NCBI GenBank assembly: GCA_910583745.1
Contig: CAJTZC010000007.1
Location: forward strand, 1,163 to 65,162
DNA: 64,000 bases
DNA from: an uncultured Bacilli bacterium
Lineage (GTDB): Bacteria; Bacillota_I; Bacilli_A; RF39; UBA660
Direction of reading: 5' to 3'
This document shows positions 10,068-64,000 of this stretch, piece by piece; within the stretch, counting starts at the first letter, position 1, and every line of letters starts with the position of its first letter. The translations under genes were made by a program, and so were the position numbers. The notes beneath the pieces were generated by a model. It did no database searches and was not told where the DNA came from. It saw only the letters and a program-made list of their open reading frames with translations.

Positions 10068-10251
10068 CTTTCTTCACCACTTTCTTCATCTTTTTGTTGA
10101 ACTCTAATCTATCCATCATTATTTCGTGGTTGCAGCCGCAGCACTTAAGCTTTAGGTCTACCCCTAATCTCGTGATGGACCAGTTTTTAGAACCGCATGC
10201 ATGGGGCTTTTTCATTTCAACTATCGTTCCTATTTTTATTTCATTTTTCAT
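10060..10251 (-). CDS. DUF951-family small protein (YyzM-like)
   Basis: 63-aa protein. Its size, conserved Cys pairs and position near parB match Bacillus yyzM. Confidence 0.6.
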   Translation of the reverse strand: MKNEIKIGTIVEMKKPHACGSKNWSITRLGVDLKLKCCGCNHEIMMDRLEFNKKMKKVVKKDE

Positions 10252-11044: not shown

Positions 11045-11046
11045 CT

Positions 11047-11934
11047 TTATTCACCGTCCACGTCTATGTCGATGATTTCGAGAATTCTAGCGAGGTCTTC
11101 GTCGCTGTCAAACGGTATCGTGACTTTTTTTGCTGAGATGGTGACTCTCGTTCCAATTTTTTCACGCATGGCATTCTCATATATCGAATAGATTCTATTT
11201 AAAGGTACTACTCTCGTTATTTTATGTTTTTTGGCAATTTCCGTGCCTTTGGAGATAACTTCTAACTCGCGGACACTCATCCCGTTGTTCACGATGCGGT
11301 ATGCGAGCGCTGTCACGTAGTCTGGGTCTTCCATCTTGGATAAGATTTTGGCATGAGCCATACTTATCTTTTTCTCTGAGACGAGCCTTTTCACTTCTTC
11401 TGGAAGGTTGACTAGACCTAACACGTTCGTGATGTAGCTTCTACTCTTACTCACTTTTTTAGCCAGTTCTTCCTGTGTGATAGAAGTTCTTTTTATCATG
11501 TTTGAATAGGCTTCGGCTTCTTCGATAGGGTTTAAATCTTCTCTTTGAATGTTCTCTAAAAGAGCGACTTCCATCATCTCTTCATCGGTAAAGTCTCTTA
11601 CGATGGCAGGAATTTCTGTGTAACCGGCCAGTTTTGCAGCTTTGGTTCTTCTTTCTCCTGCGACGAGTTCATAGCCTTTGATGCTCTTTTTGACAATGAT
11701 TGGCTGAAAGAGCCCGTGTTCTTTTATCGACTCGGATAATTCTTGTAATTTTTCTTCGTCAAAAACAATTCTCGGCTGAAAGGGATTGCTCCTTATCTCG
11801 CTTATCGGTATGTTTTTAATATCTTTCTCGGTGGCCGAATCGATTATCTCTTTTTCGACACTGTCGAAGTTGATGTTTTCACTGTTGAAAAGTTGTTCTA
11901 GTCCTATGCCTAGAGCTTTTCTTTTAGTTTCCAT
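11047..11934 (-). CDS. parB: chromosome partitioning protein ParB/Spo0J (parS-type)
   Basis: 295-aa protein with the GERRTKAAKLAG arginine patch and an HTH (TQEELAKKVSKSRSYITNVL). The specificity positions recalled from the ParB/Noc literature read R, V, N, A rather than Noc-type Q, K, K, R. It overlaps parA. Confidence 0.85.
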   Translation of the reverse strand: METKRKALGIGLEQLFNSENINFDSVEKEIIDSATEKDIKNIPISEIRSNPFQPRIVFDEEKLQELSESIKEHGLFQPIIVKKSIKGYELVAGERRTKAAKLAGYTEIPAIVRDFTDEEMMEVALLENIQREDLNPIEEAEAYSNMIKRTSITQEELAKKVSKSRSYITNVLGLVNLPEEVKRLVSEKKISMAHAKILSKMEDPDYVTALAYRIVNNGMSVRELEVISKGTEIAKKHKITRVVPLNRIYSIYENAMREKIGTRVTISAKKVTIPFDSDEDLARILEIIDIDVDGE

Positions 11935-12709
11935 CTCTTTCGATTACCTCCTTTGCTAGATTTAAGTATGCTTCAGTGGCTCTACAAAGTGGGTCATATT
12001 CGCATATCGGTTTGCCGTGGCTCGGAGCTTCCACGAGTCGTACCAATCTCGGTATTATCGTATTGAATACTTTGTCTCCGAAGAACTTTCTCACCTGTTC
12101 GACAACTTCTAAGCCCAGATTTGTTCGCGAGTCGAGCAAGGTCAAAAGCACGCCTTCGATGGTAAGATTCGGGTTCAATTTTGTCTGTGTCATGATGATT
12201 GTATTGAGAAGTTGGGCGACTCCTTCGAGAGCAAAGAATTCGCATTGTACTGGAATTAAAACTGAGTTGCTCGCGACGAGGGCATTTAGTGTGTTCAAAC
12301 CCAAAGATGGTGGACAATCGATGATGATGTAGTCGAAATTTTCTTGCACTTTGACGATGGCATTTTTGAGCTGCTCGTTTTTCTTAAATTCTGGGTCTTT
12401 GTATTCCATTTGTATCAATTCTGTGCTGAGACCTGCTAGATTTATCGTCGCCGGCAAAATGAAAAGATTTTTAAACTTGGTCCTTATAATCGCATCGGTG
12501 ATTTCACATTTTCCCGTCAGGACATCGTATGCACTCGCTTGAATCGTTCCCTTGTTAATCCCGAGGCCCGTCGATGCATTTCCCTGTTGGTCTAAGTCGA
12601 TGAGTAAAACCTTTTTGCCGAGTTTTCCTAAAGATGCAGCTAGATTGATACTCGTCGTCGTTTTTCCTACGCCGCCTTTTTGATTAACTAAAGAAATAAT
12701 TTTTGCCAT
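11924..12709 (-). CDS. parA: chromosome partitioning ATPase ParA/Soj
   Basis: Deviant Walker A KGGVGKTT. The probable start is MAKIISLVNQ. The upstream M of the track ORF at 12727 is less likely. Confidence 0.88.
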   Translation of the reverse strand: MAKIISLVNQKGGVGKTTTSINLAASLGKLGKKVLLIDLDQQGNASTGLGINKGTIQASAYDVLTGKCEITDAIIRTKFKNLFILPATINLAGLSTELIQMEYKDPEFKKNEQLKNAIVKVQENFDYIIIDCPPSLGLNTLNALVASNSVLIPVQCEFFALEGVAQLLNTIIMTQTKLNPNLTIEGVLLTLLDSRTNLGLEVVEQVRKFFGDKVFNTIIPRLVRLVEAPSHGKPICEYDPLCRATEAYLNLAKEVIERDGN

Positions 12710-12867
12710 CTCATACCACACCTTCATTAATGTTATTTCTTAAATATTTTACCATATTTATTTTTAGAAGTACATAAGCTTTTCACTAAAATATAAATAT
12801 AAACTGAATAGCCAATCGATTTCATTTTTATTCGTGGTGGTCTTTTTCTATTTTCGGTTTGTGAAGA

Positions 12868-12890
12868 ACAAAAAAAGCAGATTATTCTGC
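12868..12890 (-). terminator. Rho-independent terminator after ftsH
   Basis: Hairpin GCAGAATAATCTGC plus T7 in minus-strand sense, overlapping the ftsH stop. Confidence 0.5.
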
Positions 12891-14780
12891 CTCTTCTGTA
12901 TCGATGGATTCGTCTTTTTTTTCTTCGTATTTTGAAAGTTTTCCTGTCGTGACGAGTTCATCTATTTCTTCTTTTGTAATCGTCTCATGCTCTATGAGCG
13001 TGTCGCTTATCAAAGTGACGAGTTTTTTGTTCTCTTTGATAATTTTTGTCGCTTCTTTGTAGCATGAATCGACGATTTTTCTCACTTCTGTATCGATTTC
13101 TAATGCAACTTGGTCTGAGAAGTTTTTGGCTTTGTCGTAGTCTCTTCCTAAGAAAACGTTTCCTTGTCTCGTCTCTAGTTGGACTGGACCTAAATCACTC
13201 ATTCCGTATTCTGTGACCATGGCACGAGCAATTTTGGTTGCGCGACTGAAGTCGTCGGATGCTCCTGTGGAAATCTCTCCGAATAGGAGTTCTTCACTAA
13301 CGCGTCCTCCAAGAAGACCTACGATTTGGGCAATCAATTCTTTTTTCGTCGCCAAATTCATGTGTTCATCTTTTGGAAGCATCATCGTATAACCGCCGGC
13401 CATTCCACGAGGAATAATCGTGATTTTGTGTACTTCTTGTGCATCTTCGAGTTTGAGACCGATTACGGCGTGACCGGCTTCGTGAAGACTGACAAGTTTC
13501 TTCTCTTTATCTGTTATCTTTCTAGATACTTTTGCTGGTCCCATCAATACGCGGTCTGTCGCTTCGTCGATTTCGTCCATCGTGATGGCTGGTTTATTTC
13601 TTCTTACTGTAAGCAATGCTGCTTCGTTGAGTAAGTTCTCTAAATCGGCTCCACTGAAGCCTGGAGTACGTTTTGACAAGTTTTTAATTTTTACGTCTTT
13701 TGCAAATTTTTTATTTCTAGCATGCACTTCGAGAATCGCTTCTCTCTCCTCTGCGTCTGGTAAGTTGACTGTGACTTGTCTATCGAAACGTCCAGGTCTC
13801 AATAGTGCTGGATCTAAGACGTCAGGTCTATTCGTTGCAGCGATGATGATGATACCTTCGTTTGCTCCGAATCCGTCCATCTCCGTCAAGAGCTGGTTCA
13901 AAGTCTGTTCTCTTTCGTCATGTCCTCCGCCGATTCCTGTACCACGTTGGCGTCCTACGGCATCGATTTCGTCGATGAATATCAAACATGGAGCATTGTG
14001 CTTCGCTTCTTTGAACATATCTCTTACACGGCTCGCACCGACACCGACGAACAATTCGACGAAATCTGAACCACTGATATAATAGAATGGTACGTTCGCT
14101 TCTCCTGCGACAGCCTTCGCTAATAACGTTTTACCTGTTCCTGGAGGACCTACTAGAAGGACTCCCTTTGGTATGCGTGCACCCAATTTTTGGAATTTTT
14201 TAGGGTTCTTTAAGAAGTCTATCAGTTCTGCTACTTCTTCTTTTTCTTCCTTAAGACCTGCTACGTCGGAGAATTTTACTTTTCCTCCGTCGGCATTCAA
14301 TTTTGCTGTGCTGCGTCCGAAATCCATAGATTTGTTGTTGCCACTCGTTATCTTTGAGAATAGATACATCGTCGCAACGACCAAAATGACAATCGGCAAT
14401 ATTTCGAATGCAAGTGTCAAAATTGTACTGTTACCTGGATCTTTGTTTGTCTTTACTTTGAATTCCATCGTGTCTGCGTATGCGAGAACTCTTTCAATCA
14501 GTACGTCAGAGTATGGAACTTCTACTTTGAAGTTCTCGGTCTTTTTGTACCCTTTTAAGTTTCCTTTGATTTCATACACTCCGGAACCTGCGTTAGGAGT
14601 AAGTTCTAATTCCTCGACTTCTCCATTAGTTACTTTTTCGATGAATTCATCGTAGGTAAACTTGTGGGTCTCGTATCGAGAGGCTCCATAGTAGAATACG
14701 GCACCTATCATGAAGGCAATCAATATGCCGTACATCACTAAAGATTTCACCATATTATTGTTATTGTTTCTTTTCATCAA
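12882..14780 (-). CDS. ftsH: ATP-dependent zinc metalloprotease FtsH
   Basis: 632-aa protein with AAA Walker [14 protein letters not shown], the second region of homology, and the zinc motif HEAGHA. Confidence 0.95.
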
Positions 14781-16655: not shown

Positions 16656-17930
16656 TTAGTCTTTTTTAATGTCTATGAACAGTTTGTTTATATCTAATGT
16701 GCAAATATCCTCTATTTTTTCTTCACATTGGTGATATTTTTTGGCATTTGATTCGAAGAGCGGGATGAGTTGGCCGTCTTTGATTGCCGTCTGCTCTAGC
16801 ATAGGAGGAAATTTATAGACTTTTTTTTGCAGCTGTGCATCAGTGTAGCTTTTCATCTCTTGCGAGTACTCATAGATATGCAAATAGGAGGGGTTGTTTC
16901 TTCCAAATGAAGAACTCAGCAGCATGTATTTAGTGTCGTTTTGCGTATAGAAAGTCAATCCTTGGATTTGGGGAGGGACTTTAAATTCGCCGACATAGAT
17001 TGTGGAAATTTGATTATCTGTCTTTTCTATTTTATATTTTTTTATCGTGCAGTTGTGGGAAATGAGAAAGTTTCCTATATAGAGATAACCGTCGTCGATT
17101 GTCAAATAAGCGATATGGTGTCTTTTAGAATCTTTGTAATAATTCAGTCCTTCTTTTAGATTGTCAAAGGTATATTTAGGGAGTACATCTTTTTTCTCTA
17201 AGAAGTCTTTTGCTTCGTAGGCGACTACTGTGCCTCGTTTGCCGGTTATCCAAATGAGATTGTTTTCTTCATCGTAGGCAATGCCTCCTACATGTGAGCT
17301 CGTCTCTAGCGTGACGATGTTTATGATTTCTCCTTTTGTATTGATAACATAGCATTTTGAATTTTGCTTTTCACTGTTATCATATGCTGTGATTAAGATG
17401 TATTCCTCCATCAGTGTGATGCCTTGTGGTATCATGTCATCGAATATCGGAATGTGTGTATCGCACGCGTTTAATGCTGTGGAAAACTCCGGATATTTTG
17501 TCTGGAGATGTGCATACTTTTCTTTTGAATTTTCTAGGCGCATTTTAAATGAGCAATTGTTGTTTTTTCTCAAATTGAAATATTCTTGTGGTGTTTCCCA
17601 AGTGATGTCGTATTTTTCTTCCATAGGACATGAGGTGATGTCTTCGATGGCATTGGCTGCGATGTAAGCGGCTTCTTCGCTCAGTTCATTTGCTGTATAC
17701 ATATCCTCTAAAATGATGGCCGCATTGGCTCCTTTGGAAAGTATTTCTCTGTAATTCCTTTGTTCTGTAAAGTCTGTCGTATCTTTCCCATTTTTTGTTT
17801 CCATAAGAATGTTGGCGAGGTTTGTCTCAATCTTTCCCTTTATCTCGTCATAACTCTCTTCACTAGCACAGCCAGTGATTAAAATGGCGGAAACGATTAA
17901 AATTGTCCATGTAATTCGTTTTTTCTTCAT
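16656..17930 (-). CDS. lipoprotein of unknown function
   Basis: 424-aa protein with the signal/lipobox ILITGCAS. I recognised no catalytic motif. Confidence 0.5.
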   Translation of the reverse strand: MKKKRITWTILIVSAILITGCASEESYDEIKGKIETNLANILMETKNGKDTTDFTEQRNYREILSKGANAAIILEDMYTANELSEEAAYIAANAIEDITSCPMEEKYDITWETPQEYFNLRKNNNCSFKMRLENSKEKYAHLQTKYPEFSTALNACDTHIPIFDDMIPQGITLMEEYILITAYDNSEKQNSKCYVINTKGEIINIVTLETSSHVGGIAYDEENNLIWITGKRGTVVAYEAKDFLEKKDVLPKYTFDNLKEGLNYYKDSKRHHIAYLTIDDGYLYIGNFLISHNCTIKKYKIEKTDNQISTIYVGEFKVPPQIQGLTFYTQNDTKYMLLSSSFGRNNPSYLHIYEYSQEMKSYTDAQLQKKVYKFPPMLEQTAIKDGQLIPLFESNAKKYHQCEEKIEDICTLDINKLFIDIKKD

Positions 17931-29948: not shown

Positions 29949-30227
29949 TTAAGACTTTTTGTGTTTCAACAGTTTGATTTTTGTTTTTATAAACTTTACA
30001 CAAATTTTACTGGTCACGAGGCCCGATAAAAAAGTGGCTATAAAATAGATGTGAAATTTTCCATCGTTGAGATGATATAAAATGAACATGAAAATGGCAG
30101 TCATCAGTGGAAAGATTATATAGCATAGAAGAGATTTTTTTCTAAGGAAAAATTCATACGTTGTCATCAAAATGAAACCGAATAGAAAGAAAGCTAAAAA
30201 CGACAGGAGTTGTATGTGAACTGTCAT
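29949..30227 (-). CDS. yabQ: YabQ-like small membrane protein (spore cortex biosynthesis)
   Basis: 92-aa protein with 3 TMs, sitting between yabP and divIC as in B. subtilis. Confidence 0.55.
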   Translation of the reverse strand: MTVHIQLLSFLAFFLFGFILMTTYEFFLRKKSLLCYIIFPLMTAIFMFILYHLNDGKFHIYFIATFLSGLVTSKICVKFIKTKIKLLKHKKS

Positions 30228-30511
30228 TTGAACAACTTATTAAAAATGCTTCCTTCTGTACTTTTGGCATTGTCATCGAGATAGGAGACACTGTCGATGT
30301 GACCTTTAATCGATACATTTCCTTCTAGAGTATCTAGTTTTATCATTTCGAGTCCAGAACCTTTTATCAGCATGCCGCCCAAATTTGTGTTTAGCAAGAA
30401 TTCTTCATTGTCGAAACTTTCTATTTTACGAACCCCCGTTATGACAATGCTTTTTCTTTCATTTAGACTAACTATGTGGTTTACGCTGGTGTTTTCTACT
30501 ATTCTATCCAT
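30224..30511 (-). CDS. yabP: sporulation protein YabP
   Basis: 95-aa protein (VSLNERKSIVITGVRKIESFDNEEF...LIKGSGLEM) typical of the YabP family. Confidence 0.75.
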   Translation of the reverse strand: MDRIVENTSVNHIVSLNERKSIVITGVRKIESFDNEEFLLNTNLGGMLIKGSGLEMIKLDTLEGNVSIKGHIDSVSYLDDNAKSTEGSIFNKLFK

Positions 30512-30551
30512 GATTTATCACCTACACCATTATATGAAAAAAAGAAGATAA

Positions 30552-30851
30552 TTAGTCTTCTTTTTCCTCTGTTTGGTCTTCATCAGGTAAATCTTTTATT
30601 CTGTTGTATTCCTCTATAATCGCATCGTTGAACATTGCTCTCGTTTCTTCGTTTACAGGATGACAAGAATCGTGATATTGACCGTCCAATCCTTTTTTGC
30701 TTGGCATTGCTGCAAATAGAGAACCGTCTGCTCTTTCGATAATTCTGATGTGTTCGATTGCGAAGCAGTCATCTAATTCGACGTATGCAGAACCTTTCAT
30801 TCTAGGATTTCCATTTTCGACTTTACGTACTGATACTTTTGTTATCTTCAT
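30552..30851 (-). CDS. spoVG: septation/regulatory protein SpoVG
   Basis: 99-aa protein MKITKVSVRKVENGNPRMKGSAYVELDDCFAIEHIRIIE, strongly SpoVG-like. Confidence 0.92.
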   Translation of the reverse strand: MKITKVSVRKVENGNPRMKGSAYVELDDCFAIEHIRIIERADGSLFAAMPSKKGLDGQYHDSCHPVNEETRAMFNDAIIEEYNRIKDLPDEDQTEEKED

Positions 30852-36356: not shown

Positions 36357-36569
36357 TTAAATAAAAGTAATTTCAACATCTTTGCTGATAAGTTCTGAAT
36401 AACTAAAACTTCGTATTGAGTCTGCAAGTTCCACGGTAAATATTTGTGGATAAATTTCTTTAAGCGTTCCAATGAATTTATCTGTTTTATTACGCATTCC
36501 ATAAACTTTTACCATCACTCTCTCGCCCTTATGTGGTAAGAGATTTTCTCTTATTACAAGTGGATTCAT
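36357..36569 (-). CDS. veg: Veg protein (DUF1021)
   Basis: 70-aa protein aligning with B. subtilis Veg (...YPQIFTVELADS..SFSYSELISKDVEITF). It lies downstream of yabG as in Bacillus. Confidence 0.8.
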   Translation of the reverse strand: MNPLVIRENLLPHKGERVMVKVYGMRNKTDKFIGTLKEIYPQIFTVELADSIRSFSYSELISKDVEITFI

Positions 36570-37345
36570 TGTCTAGGGTAACCGACATACATGACGCCGT
36601 TTCCCATTATTCCCCCCATTCCATCTCGACCGTATTTGGTCCTTTCTAATAGTTCTAGCAAGTCAATTTCCTCATTTCTTTTGGTTAATGCAACAGCGAC
36701 AGCGATGATTGCTGGGTCTAATGCATGTATGTTGACGCGTTTGGGACTCGATGCATAGTTCGCTCCTGCTTTTATTATCTCTTCGTAGTTGCTTTGGCAA
36801 GCTCCGGCAATGATTATCAATTTTTCATGGCTCGATTCGTAGTTTCTAGCAGCACGAACACTCTTTATAAAATTAAGTGAGTTTTGGTAGTTTTTTGAAT
36901 CGTGTTCATTTCCCTTTTTTTTAAAGTAAGCGTCGTGTCCGGTGATGATTACTATGTCTGGTTTGTATTCGACTAAGTACCTTCCTATGCAATTTGGCAA
37001 ATCACTTTCTTTTACATTTTTTCCCACCGCTTTGACTCCCGTTTTATCATAGAAGTCTAAGCAGCGGTTAAGATAATCAGCGTCGCCATCGAAATGCAAA
37101 ATTTTGCCAGGTAGATAAAAAAATTCGTCTCTGTCTAAAAGTAGACAGTCGCGAACTCTTTCCGTGTAATCTTCTTTATCAGCTTCCACGATTACTTTCT
37201 CTAAATCTAGAAGTGGACTGTCAGCATATAACCGGACGTCTACACCTTTTAGGTAATAAACACCATTTTGAATGTTTAAAACTTTAAATACTGTGTCGTG
37301 ATTATAACTCTTTCTCGTGACGAGGTCCCCTTTTTTAATTTCCAT
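36566..37345 (-). CDS. yabG: sporulation-specific protease YabG
   Basis: 259-aa protein with the conserved YabG core (DIVIITGHDAY...IIAGACQSNYE...HALDP). Confidence 0.8.
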   Translation of the reverse strand: MEIKKGDLVTRKSYNHDTVFKVLNIQNGVYYLKGVDVRLYADSPLLDLEKVIVEADKEDYTERVRDCLLLDRDEFFYLPGKILHFDGDADYLNRCLDFYDKTGVKAVGKNVKESDLPNCIGRYLVEYKPDIVIITGHDAYFKKKGNEHDSKNYQNSLNFIKSVRAARNYESSHEKLIIIAGACQSNYEEIIKAGANYASSPKRVNIHALDPAIIAVAVALTKRNEEIDLLELLERTKYGRDGMGGIMGNGVMYVGYPRQ

Positions 37346-37689: not shown

Positions 37690-38960
37690 AAAAAAAGGGC
37701 TGACTTCCCCTTACCCCAAGTTAAAATCAAAATTTAACTATTCAATTAAGGCATTCAGATTGATTAAATTAATCAGTTCATTAGATGTAAGACCTAAAGA
37801 TAATAATTGTTTAAGAGATTGATTAAGATTATTTTTAGTGTATTTAATTCTATCTTCATCAGATGTTTCTGCAGCTGCTAAATCAGTAGGATTCCAAGTT
37901 TTTCCCGTTGATAACATATGATAGATAGCAACTAAAATCTTTCTAGCAATTGCAATATAAGTACGTTTTTTACCACGACGTTTAGAAATTTTATCAAATT
38001 TATCTGCATAATAAGTGTTAGTTTTATCTTTAACAGCAGATTCATTACATCCAGGAGCAAGACCAGCCCAAGCTGATAAACGATAGTGATTAGAAAATTG
38101 GGACATATCAACACCAATTTCTGAAATAATCGTAATTGCAGAATTTCTATTAATACCAGGAATAGTCATGAGAAGATTTGCAATGTTTATCTAAAGAGTT
38201 TATAATATCTTCATCTGAGAAAGAATCATCGCTAATGATGGTATTAATAATAGATTGACTAGATTTACCAAAAATATCAGAAAATACCATATCTAACTTG
38301 CAATTACCAACAGTAAGAGCATTAGTATATCTATTTTTCTCAGATGTTCTATTACAGGTAAGTTTGTAAATATAACGGGTAAATTCTCTCAAGATTCTAA
38401 AATCTTTTGATGGAATAAAACTAGAACGGACAATACCTAATTTAAACAAGTCTGCAATCCATTTTGCATCCTTGTTATCGTCTTTCTCACCTTTGATAAC
38501 TGCTACCCATTTAGGATTGGCAACGACGACATTAGAAATATAATCTTCTAATGCATTGTATACAGGAATATAGTACTTACCCGTAGATTCCATACATACA
38601 TTATCACAGTCGTTTTCTATTAACCAATTTCTAAATTCGATTAGAGAATTATTAAAGGTAGAAAAACGTTTTTTTAGATATCTAGGTGTTTGGTTAGATG
38701 AATCACAGATTACAGCAACAATAAAAGATTTGTGAACATCAACGCCACATGCTTTTGAATAAATAACTTTCATATAAATTTCCTTTCAAAAAAATTTTGA
38801 GGGAGTGAGTTGTCTATGCAGTTAACACTAAGAATTAACTAAAGTCAATGATTAACCTACAGCCTCAAAAGGACTACTTATGCGTGCTTGAAATAACTGC
38901 ATTTGCACTGCTTAAAATACTGATTTAATCTGTGAGTTACAGGAAGTCTGCAACTCCTCC
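37690..38960 (-). mobile_element. IS110-family insertion sequence; boundaries approximate
   Basis: It contains a DEDD-type N-terminal transposase domain and a C-terminal Transposase_20 domain. The ~190-bp 5' region is more GC-rich than its surroundings. I saw no terminal inverted repeats, as is usual for IS110. Confidence 0.6.
37738..38773 (-). pseudogene. IS110-family transposase split into 207-aa and 143-aa ORFs by a frameshift near 38150-38170
   Basis: The N-terminal ORF MKVIYSKACGVDVHKSFIV has the DEDD motif start. The C-terminal ORF carries the Transposase_20 core. The two overlap by 20 nt. IS110 is not known to use programmed frameshifting. Confidence 0.6.
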
Positions 38961-41862: not shown

Positions 41863-44556
41863 TTAATTTACTGTGAACTTTTTCGTAAGCGTCACATTTT
41901 TTTCATCTTTATCTATTGTGCGAATTGTCAATTGATATTCACCAGTTGTTAAAACGTGGTTTAGTAGTTCTATGCTTAGATGATTAGGTATGTCATTATT
42001 GATTGAATATAATATCTTAGATGGAAGTGAACCATCTTGAACAACAGATAATTCGATATCGTCTGATGTTATCCAGCCTATTGCTTCATTAAAATCGATT
42101 GAAATAGACTTGTTGTTTTTTACTTCGAAATTAGTGATTTTTAATGTGCTTCCACTTGGGTCTGGTTCTTCTGGATTGACATAAGCTGGTATCTTGTAAT
42201 GGTCTACAAAGCCTACTCTATAATTTCCCGCGTCATCGACGAACAATGCCCATAATCTCGTATTGTTTGTAACAGTGATACCTGTTAAATCGACAGTTAA
42301 TGTATTTGGACCTTCGTGCAATTTTTGTTGTTTACTCGATATAGCGCCTGTCAAAACATCTGAAGCGAATGGGGTGGTAGAATTATAATCGTAGATAGCA
42401 CCATTCCATTCGTAAACGCCATAATATATCATGCCCGCTTCGTCGGAGTTAAAACTTAAAGAAGCAGAATTTTCATTTGGTCTTGTGACATTGTCTACTG
42501 CGCCTCTGATTACAGGTGGGTCGAAATGTGAGACAAAGCTCGATTCGATGCTCTCCGTATCAGAGATGTCGATTTTCACTCTGTATTTGTTGTCTTTGTG
42601 TCCATAATTATCAGGGACTACTAAGATATAAGTTAGTAGGTCTGGACTTACTGTGAATTTCGCATTTTTCGTAGTGAGGTTTGATTCCTGTGGACATATA
42701 ATTTCAAAGTCTTGTAATGTCAAAGCTTTTTTTGGAGCTTTATTCAGTTTGAAGACAAATCGGTTTGTTATCTCTTCTGCAGCATAAACTATTTGGTATT
42801 CACTCGTAGAAGGTTCCGTCACTTGATTTGTTATTTCGAAAGGACCTTTTACTGCTGAAGTATTATTAAAATAGCCTTCTATGACATAATAAAGATTGTA
42901 TGATTTGCCTTCTTCTAAATTTGTAATGCCGACAGAATTATAGCCGACTTTTACTCGTTCAGATTTGCCGTTTGCTTTGATAGATTCTGGAGTGAATGTT
43001 CCTCTTGCCGAAGCATCCTCAATCATATAGTAAAGAATACCACCTTCGTCGACTCCATACATTTCTAATGTTGCTTCTGTGTTCGAAATTCTATCTATCA
43101 CAACTTTATTGACTGTAGGATTCGCATAGTCTGTATCGAACTCTCTACTTATAATGTTTCCATTTGGAAGTGTGATGTAGAGTTCATAAGAATCATTTTT
43201 ATAATAGGAAGTGGAAAGTGTGTATGTCATATCGTCTTTGGTCGTCAAGTTGAATAGAGAGATACTCTTTCCCTTTGTACAGATTACAGACACATCGTTC
43301 AACGTCAATTTTGTGGCTTTACTTAAAGTAAATGTTACACTGCTTTGTGAAGTGGAATGTACATCAGTAAGAGTGATATCGTTTTCTTTTCGGATAAGAA
43401 CATTGTCGACGTCTGTATCCAATTCAGGTTTATTGATGACTTCTGCATAAATCAGCGTATCGTTTGCAGATATTTTTGCATTGGTAATCGTGCCATTTCC
43501 TGAAACAGTACTGTTGTTTCCTCTATTTTCGAAGTTCGTAATGTTGCTCGAACTACTAATTCTTATCGAACTGCTGGATTCATTCACAAAGTTTTCCACA
43601 TTGGATGTGACAACTATTGTAGAGTTGCTACCATTGTTAGTAAGGTTTGTCACTGAATTATTTATATTGACTGTTCCGTTAGTATTTAAAGTAACATTTT
43701 CACTTGGAATATTTAACACGACTTCTGTACCGTCTGTTACTTGAATATTAGCAACTTTGCTCGTGCCATTGATTTCGACGTTGCCACTGATAGCGATGTC
43801 TTGTACTGTACTTCCTGTACCAAAGTTGACGGTTGGCCCTTCTAAAGCTTTATTCATTTGGAAAAGTGATTTGGATCTGAATAAGCGTGCGAACATTGTA
43901 GGTGTATCTGCTGATATTTCAAGAGAGTTAATCTTAGAATTTACTACGTCTAATTGATAATTGTTCGGCTTTTCTAACGTCATTTTGGTCGTAACTTCTA
44001 CGTCTTCTAACGTTATTCTTACATTTTTTTCAATATCAGAACTTATAATCAATGTTCCATATTTTTTGTTTTTTAGTGAGACGACTCCATTTTCGACCAT
44101 GCTGTTTGTCACTTTGAACGCGTCTACCAACTCCGGTGTATCTGGTTCCGTTGGCTGGTCAGGGTTTACTGGTTTATCAGGCTCAGTAGGCTTTTCAGGA
44201 ACATCCGGGTTTTCCGGCACGTTTGGTTCTGATGGTTCTTGTGGCTTAGAAGGAACATTTGGCTTGTTTCCAGTAGATGAACCAGGTTTATTCGGTTTAG
44301 AAGTGTCTGGGTTTGATACTACTGGCTTTTTTTCGTCCTCTTGGTCTTCCCCTTCCTCTTCAGTTTGAGTGGAATCATCAGGAATGGTACCTTTGTCAGG
44401 TTCCTTGTCGTCATTTTGAACTGGGTCCTTTTTATCAGGTATCGATTGAGGCGGATTCTCCTCTAATTTTTTGTTGTGGTTTATTGCAAGAAATGCACCA
44501 CCACTTATTATTCCAATTGTAATTATAGTAGCTATAATTGCATTTTTGATTTTCAT
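41863..44556 (-). CDS. large cell-surface protein
   Basis: 897-aa protein with an N-terminal signal-anchor, a Pro/Glu/Asp-rich linker (PEKPTEPDKPVNPDQPTEPDTPE), then a long beta-rich, Asn/Thr/Ser-rich region with internal repeats. No LPXTG motif is present. Confidence 0.6.
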   Translation of the reverse strand: MKIKNAIIATIITIGIISGGAFLAINHNKKLEENPPQSIPDKKDPVQNDDKEPDKGTIPDDSTQTEEEGEDQEDEKKPVVSNPDTSKPNKPGSSTGNKPNVPSKPQEPSEPNVPENPDVPEKPTEPDKPVNPDQPTEPDTPELVDAFKVTNSMVENGVVSLKNKKYGTLIISSDIEKNVRITLEDVEVTTKMTLEKPNNYQLDVVNSKINSLEISADTPTMFARLFRSKSLFQMNKALEGPTVNFGTGSTVQDIAISGNVEINGTSKVANIQVTDGTEVVLNIPSENVTLNTNGTVNINNSVTNLTNNGSNSTIVVTSNVENFVNESSSSIRISSSSNITNFENRGNNSTVSGNGTITNAKISANDTLIYAEVINKPELDTDVDNVLIRKENDITLTDVHSTSQSSVTFTLSKATKLTLNDVSVICTKGKSISLFNLTTKDDMTYTLSTSYYKNDSYELYITLPNGNIISREFDTDYANPTVNKVVIDRISNTEATLEMYGVDEGGILYYMIEDASARGTFTPESIKANGKSERVKVGYNSVGITNLEEGKSYNLYYVIEGYFNNTSAVKGPFEITNQVTEPSTSEYQIVYAAEEITNRFVFKLNKAPKKALTLQDFEIICPQESNLTTKNAKFTVSPDLLTYILVVPDNYGHKDNKYRVKIDISDTESIESSFVSHFDPPVIRGAVDNVTRPNENSASLSFNSDEAGMIYYGVYEWNGAIYDYNSTTPFASDVLTGAISSKQQKLHEGPNTLTVDLTGITVTNNTRLWALFVDDAGNYRVGFVDHYKIPAYVNPEEPDPSGSTLKITNFEVKNNKSISIDFNEAIGWITSDDIELSVVQDGSLPSKILYSINNDIPNHLSIELLNHVLTTGEYQLTIRTIDKDEKNVTLTKKFTVN

Positions 44557-51711: not shown

Positions 51712-51945
51712 TGTTCCTCTTTTCTATATAAAAAAACATGAACTAAAGGACGAATATAAAATCCGCGGTACCACCTTAATTCATGTTTTATCATGCACTT
51801 TAACTTTTTAACGCGAGTTAGACGTTTGGACTCCAAAGCCATGTTCGGCGATTTTCATTATCGTCTTCCACCAACCGACGACTCTCTATAAAATCCGAGC
51901 GCTTACTCTCTTCTTCTCTGTCCAATGTGTATTAAATATATCACA
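51712..51945 (-). promoter_or_regulatory. T-box riboswitch leader of metG
   Basis: The minus-strand sense contains AAUUAAGGUGGUACCGCGG, the conserved T-box antiterminator sequence. It is followed by a terminator hairpin (AAACAUGAAUUAAGG...CCUUUAGUUCAUGUUUUUUU) just upstream of the metG RBS. A GAACAUGGC segment is a candidate Met (AUG) specifier. Confidence 0.75.
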
Positions 51946-52519: not shown

Positions 52520-55500
52520 CTAGTTTATCTGTTCAATAATTGCATTTAAAAGTTCAAATAGATAGTAAATATAATTCTTTTTTAATAGAGATGTCACGAG
52601 GGTGATGGATATTTCCTTGTTTTTATAACTTATTTCAAATTTAGGACAGATACTGTAGCTCTGCAGGAAGAGTTTCTCCCCGTCTATCTTGTTCGATACT
52701 TCTTCTGGAAGTACGACTGTCACTTTGTTTTGAAGTTGGAGCAATTTTTTAACTCCTAATCTATCGAGGAAGCCTTCTACACACTTTTTGAGCATGTATA
52801 TCTCTAGCTCTTCATCAATTTTACCAAAACGATCTTCGAGCTCCGCTTTGACATTTTGGAAGTCCGTTCTGTCGTTTATTGTGTTTATCATTTTGTGAAT
52901 TTCAATTTTAATGTTCTCATCGCTGACATAGTCGTTTGATATGTATGTACTCGCATGGAGAGATGGGCCTGTTTCTTCTTTGTTTTCGATTTCGTCGCCC
53001 GACAAGCGTTTGACTTCTTCATCGACCATCTTTGTATACAAATCTAAACCCACGGCATCGATGAAACCAGCTTGTTCGCTTCCCAAGAAATCTCCTGCTC
53101 CTCTTATAGCGAGGTCTCTCATAGCGATTTTGTATCCACTTCCCAATTCTGTAAACTCTTTTATCGAGTCGAGACGTCTCATGGCTGTTTCAGTGAGCAC
53201 CTTCGCAGGGTTGTACATTAAATAGGCGTATGCAATCTTATCGCTTCTTCCGACTCGGCCTCTTATCTGATAAAGTTGACTTAGTCCAAATTTATCGGAG
53301 TCGATGATTATAATCGTATTAACGTTCGGAATGTCGATTCCTGTCTCTATAATCGTCGTACAAATTAGTATGTCGTAGTCGCCTTTTATAAATGATTCCA
53401 TGATGTTCCCAAGTTCTTCGGAAGACATCTGTCCGTGACCACATATTATATTGGCCTCTGGTATTAGCTTTTGCAATTTGTTTTTGAAACGCTCCAATTC
53501 GTTTATGGAATTTATCAAAATGAACGTTTGTCCGTTTCGAGTAAGTTCTTTATATATGGCATCTCTCATGATGAGGTCGTTTTCTTCTATAACGTAAGTT
53601 TGTATCGGATAGCGGTTAATTGGAGGCGTATCTAAGACGGAGAGGCTTCTCAGTCCACTCATTGCCATTTTGAGCGTTCTCGGAATCGGTGTTGCCGATA
53701 AGGTTAAAACGTTGACGTCGTTTTTGATTTTTTTAATCTTTTCTTTATGAGTGACACCGAAACGCTGTTCTTCGTCGATGACGAGTAAGCCTAATTTTTT
53801 GTATTCGATTTGGTCGTTTAACAATTTGTGTGTTCCTATGATGATATCGATTTTTCCTTCTCTCAATTCATTCAGTATTCTCGTGACATTTTTTTGAGAA
53901 ACGTAGCGGTTTAAGAGTGCAATCTTTATTGGAAAATCTTTAAATCTTTCGAGAGCACTCGTATATTGTTGCTTAGAAAGAATCGTCGTCGGGCATAAGT
54001 ACGCGACTTGGTATCCATTTATCACAGCTTTAAACATAGCTCGAAAGGCGACTTCTGTCTTTCCGTATCCTACATCTCCGCAAAGCAGTCTATCCATCGG
54101 AGCGGTCTGTTTTAGGTCAGCATCGATTTCTTTGATTGTTTTTTCTTGGTCTCTCGTTAGGGCATAAGGGAAATCTAAGGCAAATTTTATTTCTTCTTCA
54201 TAATCTTTATAGGCAGGACCTTGAATTTTGTTTCGGCTCGAGTAGAGTTCGATTAATTCGCCCGAGATGTCTCGTATTTTTTTTCTGGTTTCGTTTTTCT
54301 TTTTTGCCCAAGCTGCACTGTTCAATTTACTCAGTTTTATCGAAGTTCCTGGGTTAGAAGCGTATTTGTAAAGTTTGTCTATACCGTCAATTGGTACATA
54401 TACCTTGTCATTTCCTTGATATTCTAATTCTATGTAATCGCGTGTATAGCCACCGCTCGTCAGGGTCTTTAAACCTCTATAAATACCTATTCCGTGCGCT
54501 TCGTGTACAATGTAATCTCCTTGTGTCAAGTCACTGAATGATTTTATTTTTCTACCTATTTTTATCGAATTTCTGTACTTTATCTCTTTTTTTATCGTCT
54601 TGTCTATATCGTTTGGCGTTATTAAAACATATTTATCGAAGATAAATCCTTTATAAAGCTTCTTCTCAATGATGTTTATTTTTCCTATGAATAATTTCTC
54701 TTCATTTGTGAGGTATGTCTCTTCGAAGAGTTCTTGTATCGTGTGTATTTGATTTTGTGTCTCTAAGGCGAAGATAATCGTATTCTTTTTTAGTTCTTTT
54801 AAGCAGAAGGCTTTTAAGTCTTGCATATTGGAGTTGAAATTATCTACAGATTTCGAGCTATATGCGAGGGCATTTTTATCGTTGTAGGCGTTTATCGTAT
54901 CGACTTTATATGTCTTTGCAGGGTTCATTTTCTCGTACTCGAACATATAATCGGTGTTTGGGTCGATTTCTTTACTCGTCTTGTACTCAAAAATATCTTT
55001 TTGGAGGTTGATATACGAATTCTTTATTTGCGACTCGTCTATCAAGAATAGCGTTTGGTTTCCAAGGTAGTCTAACAACGAATTTGGTGTATCAGAGATG
55101 CTCTCATTGAATTTTCTCAATTCTGCTTTGTCTAGGACTTTGGTCGACCTCTGTGTCTCTTCGTCGAACTCTTTGATGGACTCGATTTCTTCGTCAAAGA
55201 ATTCTATTCGTATTGGTTTTATAGCATCTACTGGAAAAATATCTATGATATACCCCCGAACAGCATATTCTCCTGTTACTGTTACCAGTGAGTCTCTCTT
55301 GTATCCAAACTCTTCTAATTTGGTCAAAATTATTTCCCGGGAAATAATTTGGGAGGAGGGGTCTATTATTAAGCTCTGCTCTTCCTCTAAATTCGGCAGG
55401 TATTTTAAATAACCCATCAAAGATGTGACCACTATGTGTTTCTTTTTATTTTTCTTGAGCTGTTCTAGGGTTTCTAAACGCTTCATTTTTAAATCGGGAG

Positions 55501-61325: not shown

Positions 61326-61748
61326 TTATCGTTTGTCTTTAAAAAATGTCTGTATATCTTTCATGTATTTCTCTTTTTCTGGCCCTTCAAATACTACTGT
61401 TTCAAAATTAGAACATTTGTATTGTTTTTTATAAGTATAGCGGGGCACTAAATAGTAAATATTTTTTAAGCGAGCCTCCTTTATAACGGCCTTACACATA
61501 TCACATGGCTCAAGAGTAATAAGCATACATTTGTTCTGTAAGTTCCATTCTTTTAATTTGCGATTCGCTTTTTCTATGGCTATGATTTCAGCGTGGTCAG
61601 TTGTTTTTTTACTTGCATTTCTTTTGTTATATCCACAGCTAATAATTCCGCTTTCATCAAATATTATCGCACTTACAGGGAACTCATCATTTTGTAGGGA
61701 TTTTTCAGCTAATTTGAATAGTTTTTTCCACAGTTTGTTTTCTATCAT
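61326..61748 (-). CDS. tadA: tRNA-specific adenosine deaminase
   Basis: It carries CDA-fold motifs HAEIIAIE and PCDMCKAVI. The probable start is MIENKLWKK at ~61748, preceded by GGAGG. The track ORF begins 8 codons upstream. Confidence 0.88.
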   Translation of the reverse strand: MIENKLWKKLFKLAEKSLQNDEFPVSAIIFDESGIISCGYNKRNASKKTTDHAEIIAIEKANRKLKEWNLQNKCMLITLEPCDMCKAVIKEARLKNIYYLVPRYTYKKQYKCSNFETVVFEGPEKEKYMKDIQTFFKDKR

Positions 61749-61761
61749 AGTATTCCTCCAA

Positions 61762-61855
61762 AATAAAAGCACACACGAAGTCTCATCTTATGGCTGCTAT
61801 TTTCCAATCCTGACCAGGTTCGACAATTGTTCGTTGTGCGTTATAAGTATATCAC
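61762..61855 (-). ncRNA. ffs: signal recognition particle RNA (small 4.5S/ffs-type, domain IV hairpin)
   Basis: The minus-strand sense ...CCUGGUCAGGAUUGGAAAAUAGCAGCCAUAAGAUGAGAC...GUGUGUGC matches the conserved E. coli 4.5S core CCAGGUCAGGUCCGGAAGGAAGCAGCCAAGGCAGAUGAC...GUGUGC, including the GGAA tetraloop. A U-run lies at the 3' end, directly before the tadA RBS. Confidence 0.7.
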
Positions 61856-61904
61856 ATAGAATAGGGGAATACAACCCAAAGTTTTCCACAGTTATTTTTT
61901 GAAA

Positions 61905-61922
61905 TTATTTCCCGGGAAATAA
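61905..61922. promoter_or_regulatory. NBS-type site B1
   Basis: TTATTTCCCGGGAAATAA, within the 24-bp perfect palindrome AAATTATTTCCCGGGAAATAATTT. Confidence 0.8.
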
Positions 61923-61961
61923 TTTAGACAAAAAATGCAATTTGGCAAAATGGGTTTTCTG

Positions 61962-61979
61962 ATGTTCCACGTGGAACAT
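61962..61979. promoter_or_regulatory. parS-type site A1
   Basis: ATGTTCCACGTGGAACAT (contains TGTTCCACGTGGAACA). Confidence 0.8.
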
Positions 61980-62050
61980 TTAAATCTACAATTTAATACT
62001 AAAGTATTTTATCTTTGAATCAATCATTTAAAATAGGCGATTTTATTGCT

Positions 62051-62068
62051 ATGTTCCACGTGGAACAT
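62051..62068. promoter_or_regulatory. parS-type site A2
   Basis: ATGTTCCACGTGGAACAT, within the 22-bp palindrome CTATG...CATAG. Confidence 0.8.
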
Positions 62069-62130
62069 AGATAGTATATATACATGTTAAGAAGCATTTT
62101 TTAAAAATATGGCACTAAATATATGGAATT

Positions 62131-62148
62131 TTATTTCCCAGGAAATAA
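62131..62148. promoter_or_regulatory. NBS-type site B2 (imperfect)
   Basis: TTATTTCCCAGGAAATAA; one central position deviates (CCCAGG for CCCGGG). Confidence 0.6.
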
Positions 62149-62222
62149 AATTGGCTGCACTATAGCAAAAACAATCTTTTAAAACTCACTAATAATGCGA
62201 TTTCGATAACAAGTGTGCAGTA

Positions 62223-62240
62223 ATGTTCCACGTGGAACAT
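62223..62240. promoter_or_regulatory. parS-type site A3
   Basis: ATGTTCCACGTGGAACAT, followed 3 nt later by TGTGGATAA. Confidence 0.8.
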
Positions 62241-62243
62241 TAC

Positions 62244-62252
62244 TGTGGATAA
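62244..62252 (-). promoter_or_regulatory. DnaA box 1 (perfect TTATCCACA on minus strand)
   Basis: TGTGGATAA on the plus strand. Confidence 0.6.
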
Positions 62253-62295
62253 AAAAAGATTTTTTAAATAATAATCACTAAATATGACCTCAAAA

Positions 62296-62313
62296 TTATT
62301 TCCCGGGAAATAA
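62296..62313. promoter_or_regulatory. NBS-type site B3
   Basis: TTATTTCCCGGGAAATAA. Confidence 0.8.
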
Positions 62314-62352
62314 TTGTTCTTTTTTCGCGTTATTGAAGTATGCAATATTACA

Positions 62353-62370
62353 ATGTTCCACGTGGAACAT
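62353..62370. promoter_or_regulatory. parS-type site A4
   Basis: ATGTTCCACGTGGAACAT, followed by TGTGGAAAA (a one-mismatch DnaA box). Confidence 0.8.
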
Positions 62371-62449
62371 TGTGGAAAAGTCGAAAAATTTAACATTTTT
62401 CAAACAATACATAATAAATTAAATACAAAACAGTATTTTTTACAGTTAA

Positions 62450-62467
62450 ATGTTTCACGTGAAACAT
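62450..62467. promoter_or_regulatory. parS-type site A5 (exact consensus)
   Basis: ATGTTTCACGTGAAACAT contains TGTTTCACGTGAAACA. Confidence 0.85.
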
Positions 62468-62567
62468 ATAATAGGCAAGAATCTAAGCGTTTTTATAAAA
62501 ATCTAATTTAATTGTACAATCGAAAAGCAAATCACTCTTCATTAAACAGTTTAACCAGGTTATAACA

Positions 62568-62585
62568 ATGTTTCACGTGGAACAT
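62568..62585. promoter_or_regulatory. parS-type site A6
   Basis: ATGTTTCACGTGGAACAT (hybrid half-sites). Confidence 0.8.
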
Positions 62586-62588
62586 TGT

Positions 62589-62597
62589 TGTGGATAA
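62589..62597 (-). promoter_or_regulatory. DnaA box 2 (perfect)
   Basis: TGTGGATAA, 3 nt after site A6. Confidence 0.6.
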
Positions 62598-62644
62598 AAA
62601 AAGATTTTTTAAATAATAATCAATCACTAAATATGACCTCAAAA

Positions 62645-62662
62645 TTATTTCCCGGGAAATAA
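62645..62662. promoter_or_regulatory. NBS-type site B4
   Basis: TTATTTCCCGGGAAATAA. Confidence 0.8.
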
Positions 62663-62701
62663 TTGTTCTTTTTTCACGTTATTGAAGTATGCAATATTAC
62701 A

Positions 62702-62719
62702 ATGTTCCACGTGAAACAT
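62702..62719. promoter_or_regulatory. parS-type site A7 (identical to the B. subtilis spo0J parS)
   Basis: ATGTTCCACGTGAAACAT contains TGTTCCACGTGAAACA. Confidence 0.85.
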
Positions 62720-62722
62720 TGC

Positions 62723-62731
62723 TGTGGATAA
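62723..62731 (-). promoter_or_regulatory. DnaA box 3 (perfect)
   Basis: TGTGGATAA, 3 nt after site A7. Confidence 0.6.
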
Positions 62732-62771
62732 CTTAATTTGGATTCTTAAATAAATCATTTTTGTAATAATT

Positions 62772-62789
62772 TTATTTCCCGGGAAATAA
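62772..62789. promoter_or_regulatory. NBS-type site B5
   Basis: TTATTTCCCGGGAAATAA, within the 22-bp palindrome TTTTATTTCCCGGGAAATAAAA. Confidence 0.8.
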
Positions 62790-62826
62790 AACAGGATAAT
62801 ATATGGAATTAATTTTGTAATTTGGA

Positions 62827-62844
62827 ATGTTCCACGTGGAACAT
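62827..62844. promoter_or_regulatory. parS-type site A8
   Basis: ATGTTCCACGTGGAACAT. Confidence 0.8.
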
Positions 62845-62883
62845 CAGAAAACTCATTTTGCCAAATTGCAATTTCTGTCCAAA

Positions 62884-62901
62884 TTATTTCCCGGGAAATA
62901 A
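62884..62901. promoter_or_regulatory. NBS-type site B6
   Basis: TTATTTCCCGGGAAATAA, within the 24-bp palindrome AAATTATTTCCCGGGAAATAATTT. Confidence 0.8.
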
Positions 62902-62921
62902 TTTCAAAATAAAAAATGGCT

Positions 62922-64000
62922 TTATTCGCCATTTTCTTCTATTTTTGGAACGTTTTCCACAGTTTGTTCTTCTAAAGGTGTCGTTTCTTCAGTCTCAGCA
63001 GCTTCTTCAGAATCTTTTTCAACAACACTTATCGATGATACCCATTGATTTTCTTTAAGGTTGATTAGTCTAACACCTTGAGCATTTCTGCCCAATTGAG
63101 AAATCGAAGTGGTTTCTAGTCTTATTACCATACCCGAATCGGTTATGATTACGATGTCTTTGTTGTCATCCACAATTTTAAATGAAGCGATATTTCCGTT
63201 CTTTTCAGTAACGTTCAATGCTTTAACACCTTTGCTGCCACGACGGGTCTCTCTAAATTCACGAACAAATGTTCGTTTTCCGTAACCTTTCTCTGTAACG
63301 ATGAGGATATTTGTATCCAAGTCACATACTTCTGCACAGATACATTCTCCATCAGGCATCGTTATTCCACGGACTCCTGAAGCGGTTCTACCCATGATGC
63401 GAACTTCCGATTCGTCGAACAATACTGCACGACCATTCGATGAGCCTAACATAATTTTGTTTTCACCATTCGTCTTTTTGACTTCTATCAATTCATCATT
63501 CTCTTTAAGTGTTATACATAGTTTACCATTTTGACGAATGTTAGCAAATTCGTCAATACTTGTACGCTTTACAACACCTTTTTTAGTGGCAAATAGAAGG
63601 AATTTCGCTGCATCTTCGTTGCTTACCTTGATGATTGAGTTTACAAGCTCATCTTTTTCAATCTGTAAAAGGTTTATGATTGGTAATCCTTTATGCTGTC
63701 TAGCAAATTCTGGTATTTCGTAACCCTTTATACGGTATACTTTACCTTTATTTGTAAAGAATAGTATGTAATCATGTGTAGATACATTTACCATCAGCTT
63801 AACGTTGTCTTCTTCGTTGGTTGACATTCCTTTGATGCCTACACCTCCGCGATTCTGTGTTTTATAGGTGTTTGCTGCGACACGTTTGATATAACCCTTG
63901 TCAGTTAATGTAATGATGCTGTTTTCTTCTGGTATCAAGGATTCATCTTCTATGAAGTCTACTGCTGTCATATCAATTTTAGTACGACGTTCATCTCCAT
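62922..64000 (-). CDS. gyrA: DNA gyrase subunit A, C-terminal domain (partial; gene continues beyond the right window edge)
   Basis: It shows the beta-pinwheel repeat pattern typical of the GyrA CTD (ITLTDKGYIKRV..., VKLMVNVSTHDYILFFTNKGKVYRIKGYEIPE, QGVRLINLKENQWV) and an acidic tail. The track ORF M at 63971 is internal. Confidence 0.85.
   Translation of the reverse strand, partial: GDERRTKIDMTAVDFIEDESLIPEENSIITLTDKGYIKRVAANTYKTQNRGGVGIKGMSTNEEDNVKLMVNVSTHDYILFFTNKGKVYRIKGYEIPEFARQHKGLPIINLLQIEKDELVNSIIKVSNEDAAKFLLFATKKGVVKRTSIDEFANIRQNGKLCITLKENDELIEVKKTNGENKIMLGSSNGRAVLFDESEVRIMGRTASGVRGITMPDGECICAEVCDLDTNILIVTEKGYGKRTFVREFRETRRGSKGVKALNVTEKNGNIASFKIVDDNKDIVIITDSGMVIRLETTSISQLGRNAQGVRLINLKENQWVSSISVVEKDSEEAAETEETTPLEEQTVENVPKIEENGE

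Follow-up and report, generated by a model that had tools for sequence, protein, structure and literature searches.

A conserved origin-proximal array of interleaved parS and Noc-binding sites in a clade of uncultured bacteria

The pair of ParB and Noc is the textbook example of how a DNA clamp, once duplicated, divided its work into two jobs on two sets of sites. Among comparable arrangements, sopC of F comprises 12 x 43-bp tandem repeats with a SopB site in each, and the ram sites of Bacillus subtilis RacA form an origin-proximal cluster that anchors the origin during sporulation. Origin-proximal clusters of parS, the sites of ParB, are likewise known, with 20–23 sites in Streptomyces coelicolor and Listeria innocua (review PMC7333895), and the same review suggests that adding an amphipathic helix by grafting created the function of Noc, how Noc evolved being an open question there. 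Here, a stretch of 64,000 nucleotides from an uncultured Bacilli bacterium (NCBI GenBank assembly GCA_910583745.1, contig CAJTZC010000007.1, positions 1,163 to 65,162 of the forward strand; hereafter the window) was analysed, in which an array of about 1 kb next to gyrA contains parS and Noc-binding sites (NBS) in mixed order. This array is a conserved feature across a clade and not an assembly artefact, and it is considered here, with a probability of about 0.68, to be an origin-proximal centromere whose interleaved sites would load two paralogous DNA clamps dependent on cytidine triphosphate (CTP). An earlier sequence-only reading of the same DNA started from the premise that parS sites are single and scattered, which is too strong in view of the known clusters of 20–23 sites, and only the interleaving with NBS is new.

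The parS/NBS array and its conservation

Eight parS and six NBS had been counted in the sequence-only reading, and this count holds at 61906–62900. The parS pattern TGTTNCACGTGNAACA was found eight times in the window, with no mismatch in any copy and all copies within 61963–62843, against a chance expectation of 0.14; the count is still eight when up to two mismatches are permitted, and none of 100 shuffles reached eight. The NBS pattern TATTTCCCGGGAAATA was observed in five exact copies and one CCCAGG variant (62132), with a chance expectation of 0.01, and for parS and NBS combined about 0.1 is expected by chance. Both palindromes are the canonical parS and NBS sequences as claimed, since the consensus parS TGTTTCACGTGAAACA (62451) and the spo0J parS TGTTCCACGTGAAACA (62703) are both present among the eight, and TATTTCCCGGGAAATA is the same 16-mer as the NBS oligonucleotide of the Noc biochemistry papers. 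With N for NBS and P for parS, the sites follow the order N P P N P N P P P N P N P N, and the centres of neighbouring sites are 55–118 bp apart. The features of the array are as follows, no strand being assigned to sites and repeats.

61892–62914: whole mixed parS/NBS array, non-coding, 27% G+C
61906–61921: NBS 1, exact TATTTCCCGGGAAATA, about 60 nt upstream of the 5' end of the signal recognition particle (SRP) RNA
61963–61978: parS 1, TGTTCCACGTGGAACA
62052–62067: parS 2, TGTTCCACGTGGAACA
62132–62147: NBS 2, variant TATTTCCCAGGAAATA with one mismatch
62224–62239: parS 3, TGTTCCACGTGGAACA, followed by a perfect DnaA box at 62244–62252
62297–62312: NBS 3, exact
62354–62369: parS 4, TGTTCCACGTGGAACA, followed by a one-mismatch DnaA box at 62371–62379
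62451–62466: parS 5, TGTTTCACGTGAAACA, full consensus
62569–62584: parS 6, TGTTTCACGTGGAACA, followed by a perfect DnaA box at 62589–62597
62646–62661: NBS 4, exact
62703–62718: parS 7, TGTTCCACGTGAAACA, followed by a perfect DnaA box at 62723–62731
62773–62788: NBS 5, exact
62828–62843: parS 8, TGTTCCACGTGGAACA
62885–62900: NBS 6, exact
61892–61991: left arm of the inverted repeat
62815–62914: right arm of the inverted repeat
62207–62372: copy 1 of the direct duplication
62552–62721: copy 2 of the direct duplication
55331–55346: solitary exact NBS inside the coding region of mfd

The array has a G+C content of 27% compared with 36% for the window, and its non-coding character, also proposed from the letters, is borne out: the open reading frames (ORFs) inside it reach only 78 and 95 amino acids (aa), the 95-aa ORF has no Pfam match, and Rfam at gathering thresholds matched the small SRP RNA alongside but nothing within the array. 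Its ends form an inverted repeat of 100 nt with 90% complementarity, each arm containing one NBS and one parS, and its middle contains a direct duplication of about 165 bp with 94–98% identity between the copies, the first of which harbors a parS, a DnaA box, an NBS and another parS. Tandem Repeats Finder detected nothing in the array of the window, which is thus a degenerate mosaic of inverted repeat and direct duplication, unlike the clean tandem arrays of its relatives. No further copy of array sequence was observed elsewhere in the window, save the NBS palindrome itself: the 26-nt context of the NBS in mfd (55324–55349, TCAAAATTATTTCCCGGGAAATAATT) is identical to that of the array NBS copies, suggesting that more than 16 bp are recognized.

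The array is located in the gene order dnaA-dnaN-comK-recF-gyrB-gyrA-array-SRP RNA-tadA-dnaX-ybaB-recR, in which all genes are co-oriented, and its neighbours in the window are listed below.

62922–64000, minus strand: 3' part of gyrA, with a terminator-like hairpin (62913–62935) at the stop codon
61760–61845, minus strand: small SRP RNA (Rfam), directly downstream of the array
61326–61748, minus strand: tadA, with its ATG start at 61748, then dnaX-ybaB-recR

The contig L131 represents the same species, as its DnaA is 100% identical to the DnaA of L001 and its gyrA DNA is 99.4% identical to that of the window. The replication origin (oriC) corresponds to DnaA-box clusters flanking dnaA in L131, one upstream of dnaA (9754–9893) and one in the dnaA-dnaN gap (11439–11502). 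Measured from these clusters, the array starts about 7.5–9 kb from oriC, in agreement with the origin proximity expected from the sequence, and no other parS was found in the window, L126 or L131, which together cover about 80 kb around oriC. A comK-family gene is fixed between dnaN and recF across the clade (L001 2652–3149; 21 related loci), and such a fixed position in the dnaA-gyrA cluster is unusual for a competence regulator.

Relatives were sought with a pattern of an NBS core, 35–65 nt and a parS core in 185,579 species genomes, and at least 119 genome stretches matched, where by our estimate chance would give well under one. Nearly all of the 119 matches listed contain multi-site mixed clusters, and in about 111 of them the cluster occupies the same slot, beside gyrA and/or tadA-dnaX. 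Identities to the window proteins in these same-slot relatives are 51–75% for GyrA and 30–57% for TadA, values low enough to indicate a deep clade. The relatives listed are uncultured metagenome-assembled genomes (MAGs) labelled Bacilli, Erysipelotrichaceae, Tenericutes, Mollicutes or Mycoplasma sp., mostly from gut or rumen (mouse, human, rabbit, ruminants and chicken), and two of them are complete genomes of about 1.52 Mb. In many of them the array is a clean tandem repeat in which every unit contains a single NBS and a single parS: a circular long-read MAG has 5.6 units of 126 bp, and a further array has 12.8 units of 80 bp. The bases left unfixed by the search pattern restore the full palindromes A-TGTTTCACGTGAAACA-T and TTATTTCCCGGGAAATAA in 76–100% of sites. 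The arrays (about 69 kb in total) contain 443 parS and 277 exact NBS cores, compared with 31 parS and 47 NBS in 750 kb of origin-proximal DNA outside them, where one NBS occurs per about 16 kb. Whether the density of sites is exceptional had been put forward as a check in the sequence-only reading, and the array does not stand out, as about 111 species-level MAGs have such a mixed cluster in the corresponding slot; an array common among related genomes would by that reading be unremarkable, whereas here it is taken to be an undescribed feature that has been conserved.

The window is 100% identical to the European Nucleotide Archive contig ERR3199540_561, a short-read metagenome assembly, and independent assemblies compared with window positions 61700–63000 (L002, L004, L006 and L131–L133) reproduce about 520 bp on the tadA side and about 60–145 bp on the gyrA side, then break inside the array. 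In L006 (mouse gut, DRR014786) the array is about 71 bp shorter, with two parS units merged and one unit missing. The copy number of the array differs between strains and fragments MAGs next to gyrA, and the array would explain the short-read assembly breaks at this position in these abundant gut bacteria. The same tadA also occurs in other samples, one of them a mouse gut metagenome.

The 609 adjacencies in the arrays of the relatives comprise 407 mixed, 172 parS-parS and 30 NBS-NBS pairs, which is more alternation than in random order. The distances between NBS and parS dyads peak at about 25, 36, 48.5, 57.5, 68.5 and 78 bp, that is, at half-integer helical turns (Rayleigh R = 0.27, n = 292, p ~5e-10; largest R in the jittered null 0.15). 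This phasing persists when only distances that the search pattern did not impose are counted (R = 0.21, p = 0.002) and with one distance per locus (median R = 0.25, p ~1e-3), whereas parS-parS distances are unphased (R = 0.09); in the window, 5 of the 10 adjacent pairs of the two types lie at 55–57 bp. Half-turn phasing suggests selection on rotational position, with two proteins on opposite faces of the DNA, and the spacing argues for joint occupancy of NBS and parS as far as site geometry can indicate it.

ParB and a Noc-like paralogue of the same species

The window encodes a ParA and a predicted parS-type ParB, and a Noc-like paralogue was found across oriC in the same species.

11047–11934, minus strand: parB, 295 aa, ParB_N and HTH_ParB domains
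11924–12727, minus strand: parA, 267 aa
L131, 1130–2308: Noc-like gene, ParB_N and HTH_ParB domains, same species, outside the window

The closest solved relatives of the window's ParB are Spo0J/ParB proteins, and its specificity positions read R173/V179/N184/A201 in Caulobacter numbering, with the parS-type R173 and no K or R at 179 or 184. The GERR and ENxQR motifs of the CTP pocket are invariant in the alignment of ParB and the Noc-like protein. The conserved contact residue R204 of ParB is replaced by lysine. The parAB genes lie beside tilS-ftsH on the right replichore, followed by rpsF-ssb-rpsR-rplI-dnaB (window 7287–14780), a segment that lies left of oriC in B. subtilis. From this difference in position it was predicted that noc had stayed next to rsmG, and the contigs across oriC confirmed it; the arrangement looks like a translocation that split noc from parAB.

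A tblastn search of the window returned no second ParB-family gene, rsmG or mnmG, which places noc outside it, and the Noc-like gene was located through a search with the DnaA of L001 and then through contigs across oriC. Both L131 and a relative, L130, have rpmH-rnpA-yidC-jag-mnmE-mnmG-rsmG in this order, followed by a ParB_N and HTH_ParB protein of 392 or 368 aa, and in L130 the Noc-like gene, oriC and the array are all on one contig of 1.03 Mb. The existence of a Noc paralogue, on which the sequence-only reading depended, is therefore confirmed for the species, which encodes an NBS-type protein next to rsmG in addition to the predicted parS-type ParB with ParA. The L131 protein is 47% identical to B. 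subtilis Noc, its C-terminal domain is Noc-type (the last 35 aa align with B. subtilis Noc, with an AlphaFold predicted local distance difference test score, pLDDT, of 92–95), and three Noc entries rank at the top among solved structures with ParB entries behind. Its specificity residues are Q173/K179/N184/R201, and QKNR was observed in 112 of 117 relatives; Jalal et al. 2020 (PMC7383237) found Q173, R201 and a single permissive K to be enough for NBS specificity. With the NCBIfam Noc model TIGR04285 the proteins score 298 and 295 bits, below the cut-off of 315 bits, compared with 374 for B. subtilis Noc, and the match spans profile positions 1–200 of 255, ending at a disordered insert. A search with B. 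subtilis Noc against 5.8 billion proteins yielded only Bacillaceae among the 120 matches listed.

Two regions of the Noc-like protein differ from canonical Noc. An in-frame TAA lies 21 nt upstream of its ATG, the residues before PNRFQPR number 14–19 in 117 relatives compared with 36–56 in 117 Bacillaceae Noc proteins, and its alignment to the N-delta-26 crystal construct 7NG0 starts at residue 2 of that construct; the short N-terminus means that the amphipathic helix alpha1 and helix alpha2 are absent. Moreover, a disordered insert separates the DNA-binding and C-terminal domains, with AlphaFold pLDDT below 50 for most of residues 201–350 between confidently modelled domains, and near relatives share the linker motifs FNPF and ETFDMFG. 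The best 150 representatives (50% identity) from a library of 1.84 billion proteins are all of the same helix-less, long-linker type, with Q-K-[N/S/T/A]-R, a short N-terminus, a median length of 464 aa and linkers rich in E, N, P and S; the disordered linkers of the subfamily are 100 to 570 aa long. As judged from their sequences, these predicted helix-less, long-linker Noc proteins are a large unnamed subfamily. The suggestion that the array might act as a membrane tether conflicts with this protein, as the Noc of the clade is without the amphipathic helix that canonical Noc needs for membrane binding.

Other features of the window include an IS110-family transposase gene (37738–38773, minus strand), which is split into ORFs of 207 and 143 aa and is probably a frameshifted pseudogene, and a T-box leader (108 bits; 51743–51927, minus strand) upstream of a gene for a class-I transfer RNA synthetase of 554 aa. 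The sporulation-associated yabP, spoVG, yabG protease and AbrB/SpoVT-like genes were also observed (window 29949–30851 and 36566–37345; L001 19277–19789), and two ORFs of 897 aa (41863–44556) and 424 aa (16656–17930) have no Pfam match.

Proposed function and alternative explanations

In the proposed mechanism, the ParB of the window would nucleate on the eight parS and close into clamps, and the resulting partition complex would be acted on by ParA, and presumably by SMC too. The Noc-type paralogue encoded next to rsmG across oriC would nucleate on the six NBS between the parS sites, and from the half-turn phasing both proteins might occupy the array simultaneously, on opposite faces of the DNA. 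Without membrane-targeting helices and with a long acidic disordered linker in their place, the Noc-like protein is probably not a tether between DNA and membrane; it would more likely form a second layer on the ParB complex that recruits other factors or obstructs the sliding of ParB. The acidic linker with its conserved short motifs might recruit partners or provide a steric or condensate layer, and site-bound dimers could keep the sliding clamps of the other protein inside the array. More tentatively, and with less confidence than in the centromere itself, the Noc of the clade might be a second centromere protein that co-assembles with ParB on the phased array, not a membrane-tethering nucleoid-occlusion factor, and it may preserve, or have returned to, a stage after the specificity switch at which no helix had been grafted.

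The reading of the array as a centromere for two clamps draws on the site sequences and their statistics, the conserved position, the genes with their specificity residues, the absent N-terminus and the phasing. Several points weigh against it. The scan required an NBS-parS pair, and arrays of parS only at this locus are invisible to it; L130 has six parS and one NBS, and such variable NBS content implies that NBS may be dispensable for centromere function. Position 184 of the Noc-like protein is N and not K, and the ParB, whose preference for parS is deduced from R173, has A201 at a position where extant ParBs are reported with an invariant glycine (G201; Jalal et al. 2020, PMC7383237). The phasing statistics ignore phylogeny, the copy number within 62273–62855 comes from one short-read assembly, and the binding events, CTP dependence, co-occupancy and cellular role are all inferred from sequence.

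The alternative that survives best is a centromere of parS only, in which the NBS copies have no joint function and Noc is bound as at its dispersed sites. The two palindromes differ by two bases per half-site, such that NBS could arise by mutation in an amplifying parS array, and the tandem amplification seen in many arrays spreads any unit content; moreover, the number of NBS per array varies from 1 to 13 among the relatives while parS is always multiple, and NBS also occur outside the arrays at the frequency given above. Nevertheless, NBS are about 60-fold denser in the arrays than in the flanking DNA, exact palindromes of 16–24 bp are kept across species with GyrA only 51–75% identical to that of the window, and the NBS-parS phasing persists outside the search-forced range, and we regard this alternative as unlikely.

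Transcriptional control was weighed next, in which bound ParB-family proteins would repress or insulate SRP RNA-tadA-dnaX-ybaB-recR or end the read-through from gyrBA in a KorB-like manner. The placement of the array between the terminator-like hairpin of gyrA and the SRP RNA, with NBS 1 close to the 5' end of that RNA, and the co-orientation of the flanking genes are consistent with such a role. A smaller arrangement of this kind was observed outside the clade, in a MAG of Acidaminococcales, Negativicutes (L098 5950–6065), where one full NBS, two parS-like sites (GTTTCACGTGCAAC) and a half NBS form a small cluster in the rsmG-noc intergenic region, upstream of a Noc-like gene with Q-K-R-R and then parA-parB. 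Fourteen sites over 1 kb, however, exceed the needs of an operator by far, the cluster of some species is found in the tadA-dnaX gap, not upstream of tadA, and promoter-like matches in the array region are at background (8, compared with 8.8 expected from shuffles), all of which leaves this explanation improbable.

Control of replication, by titration of DnaA or by coupling of ParB and Noc to initiation, would compare with datA, with DnaA-box clusters and with Staphylococcus aureus Noc, which is reported to control replication initiation (PMC5540599). The array of the window contains three perfect and three one-mismatch DnaA boxes (TTATCCACA); four parS sites have a box starting 3–6 nt after them, three of these boxes being perfect, and two one-mismatch boxes (61882–61890 and 62953–62961) flank the array. 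Clade-wide, perfect boxes are about 4.6-fold denser in the arrays than outside. At least one perfect DnaA box is present in just 8% of the related arrays, however, and two of the three perfect boxes of the window belong to one recent duplication of about 165 bp, which makes replication control a very improbable account. A DnaA-box element was rejected as a general explanation on the same 8%.

An assembly artefact or an inserted mobile repeat, to which the breaks of short-read assemblies in the array, the single spanning contig and the 100-nt inverted-repeat ends might point, is scarcely credible, as about 111 independent MAGs, a circular long-read genome among them, have an array of this kind at the matching place in the gene order, both array edges are reproduced by independent runs, and the window contains no second copy of array sequence apart from the NBS palindrome. 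The array class is accordingly real, which answers the concern over an artefact raised with the sequence-only reading, and a mobile repeat element was rejected for the absence of dispersed copies in the window and the syntenic position fixed in the same MAGs.

Comparison with known systems

Clustered parS, NBS and Noc are each already known separately. No mixed parS/NBS array is described in the searchable literature, in accordance with the novelty first claimed for the locus, and the dense interleaving, its conservation at a single locus throughout a deep clade, the helically phased spacing and the helix-less, long-linker Noc subfamily are likewise absent from it. This clade mixes both site types at what would be its centromere, with a Noc partner that is without the feature defining the known mechanism. 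If the proposed reading is true, it shows that bacterial centromeres can be built in a second way, by loading two CTP-dependent clamps onto a single array, and widens the functional range of Noc; it would also provide natural short DNA substrates and protein pairs for the study of clamp interplay in vitro (roadblock, co-condensation or recruitment), and a natural system for how a ParB duplicate gained a new function.

The locus resembles the clustered parS centromeres in its multiple 16-bp parS near oriC, its ParA and presumably cognate ParB, and its presumed role in ParB loading and origin segregation; it differs from them in occupying about 1 kb of one intergenic region, often as perfect tandem repeats in the relatives, and in the helically phased interleaving with the sites of a second ParB-family protein. 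With F sopC it shares head-to-tail units that contain a partition-protein site and vary in copy number between strains, whereas here the array is chromosomal, its parS are of chromosomal type, and each unit carries two site types for two paralogues. Similarly to RacA and ram, a second site-specific protein would be concentrated at the origin region alongside ParB as an addition to the centromere; RacA, however, is unrelated to ParB, and the ram sites, which extend across hundreds of kb, do not alternate with parS at 25–80 bp.

The Noc-NBS system of B. subtilis (PMC8429893, PMC4331003, PMC7383237) shares the identical 16-bp NBS oligonucleotide sequence and some dispersed NBS, such as the one inside mfd, and its Noc is matched here by an orthologue on the evidence of rsmG adjacency, Q173/K179/R201, the C-terminal domain and the solved-Noc matches. 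In contrast to that system, NBS are concentrated here in an array with parS next to oriC, and in contrast to canonical Noc, the protein is without the membrane-targeting alpha1 and alpha2, has a disordered linker of 100–570 aa and scores 298 bits where the family threshold is 315 bits. Given the proposal that a grafted helix made Noc what it is, a helix-less, predicted NBS-specific Noc at a putative centromere bears on how Noc evolved.

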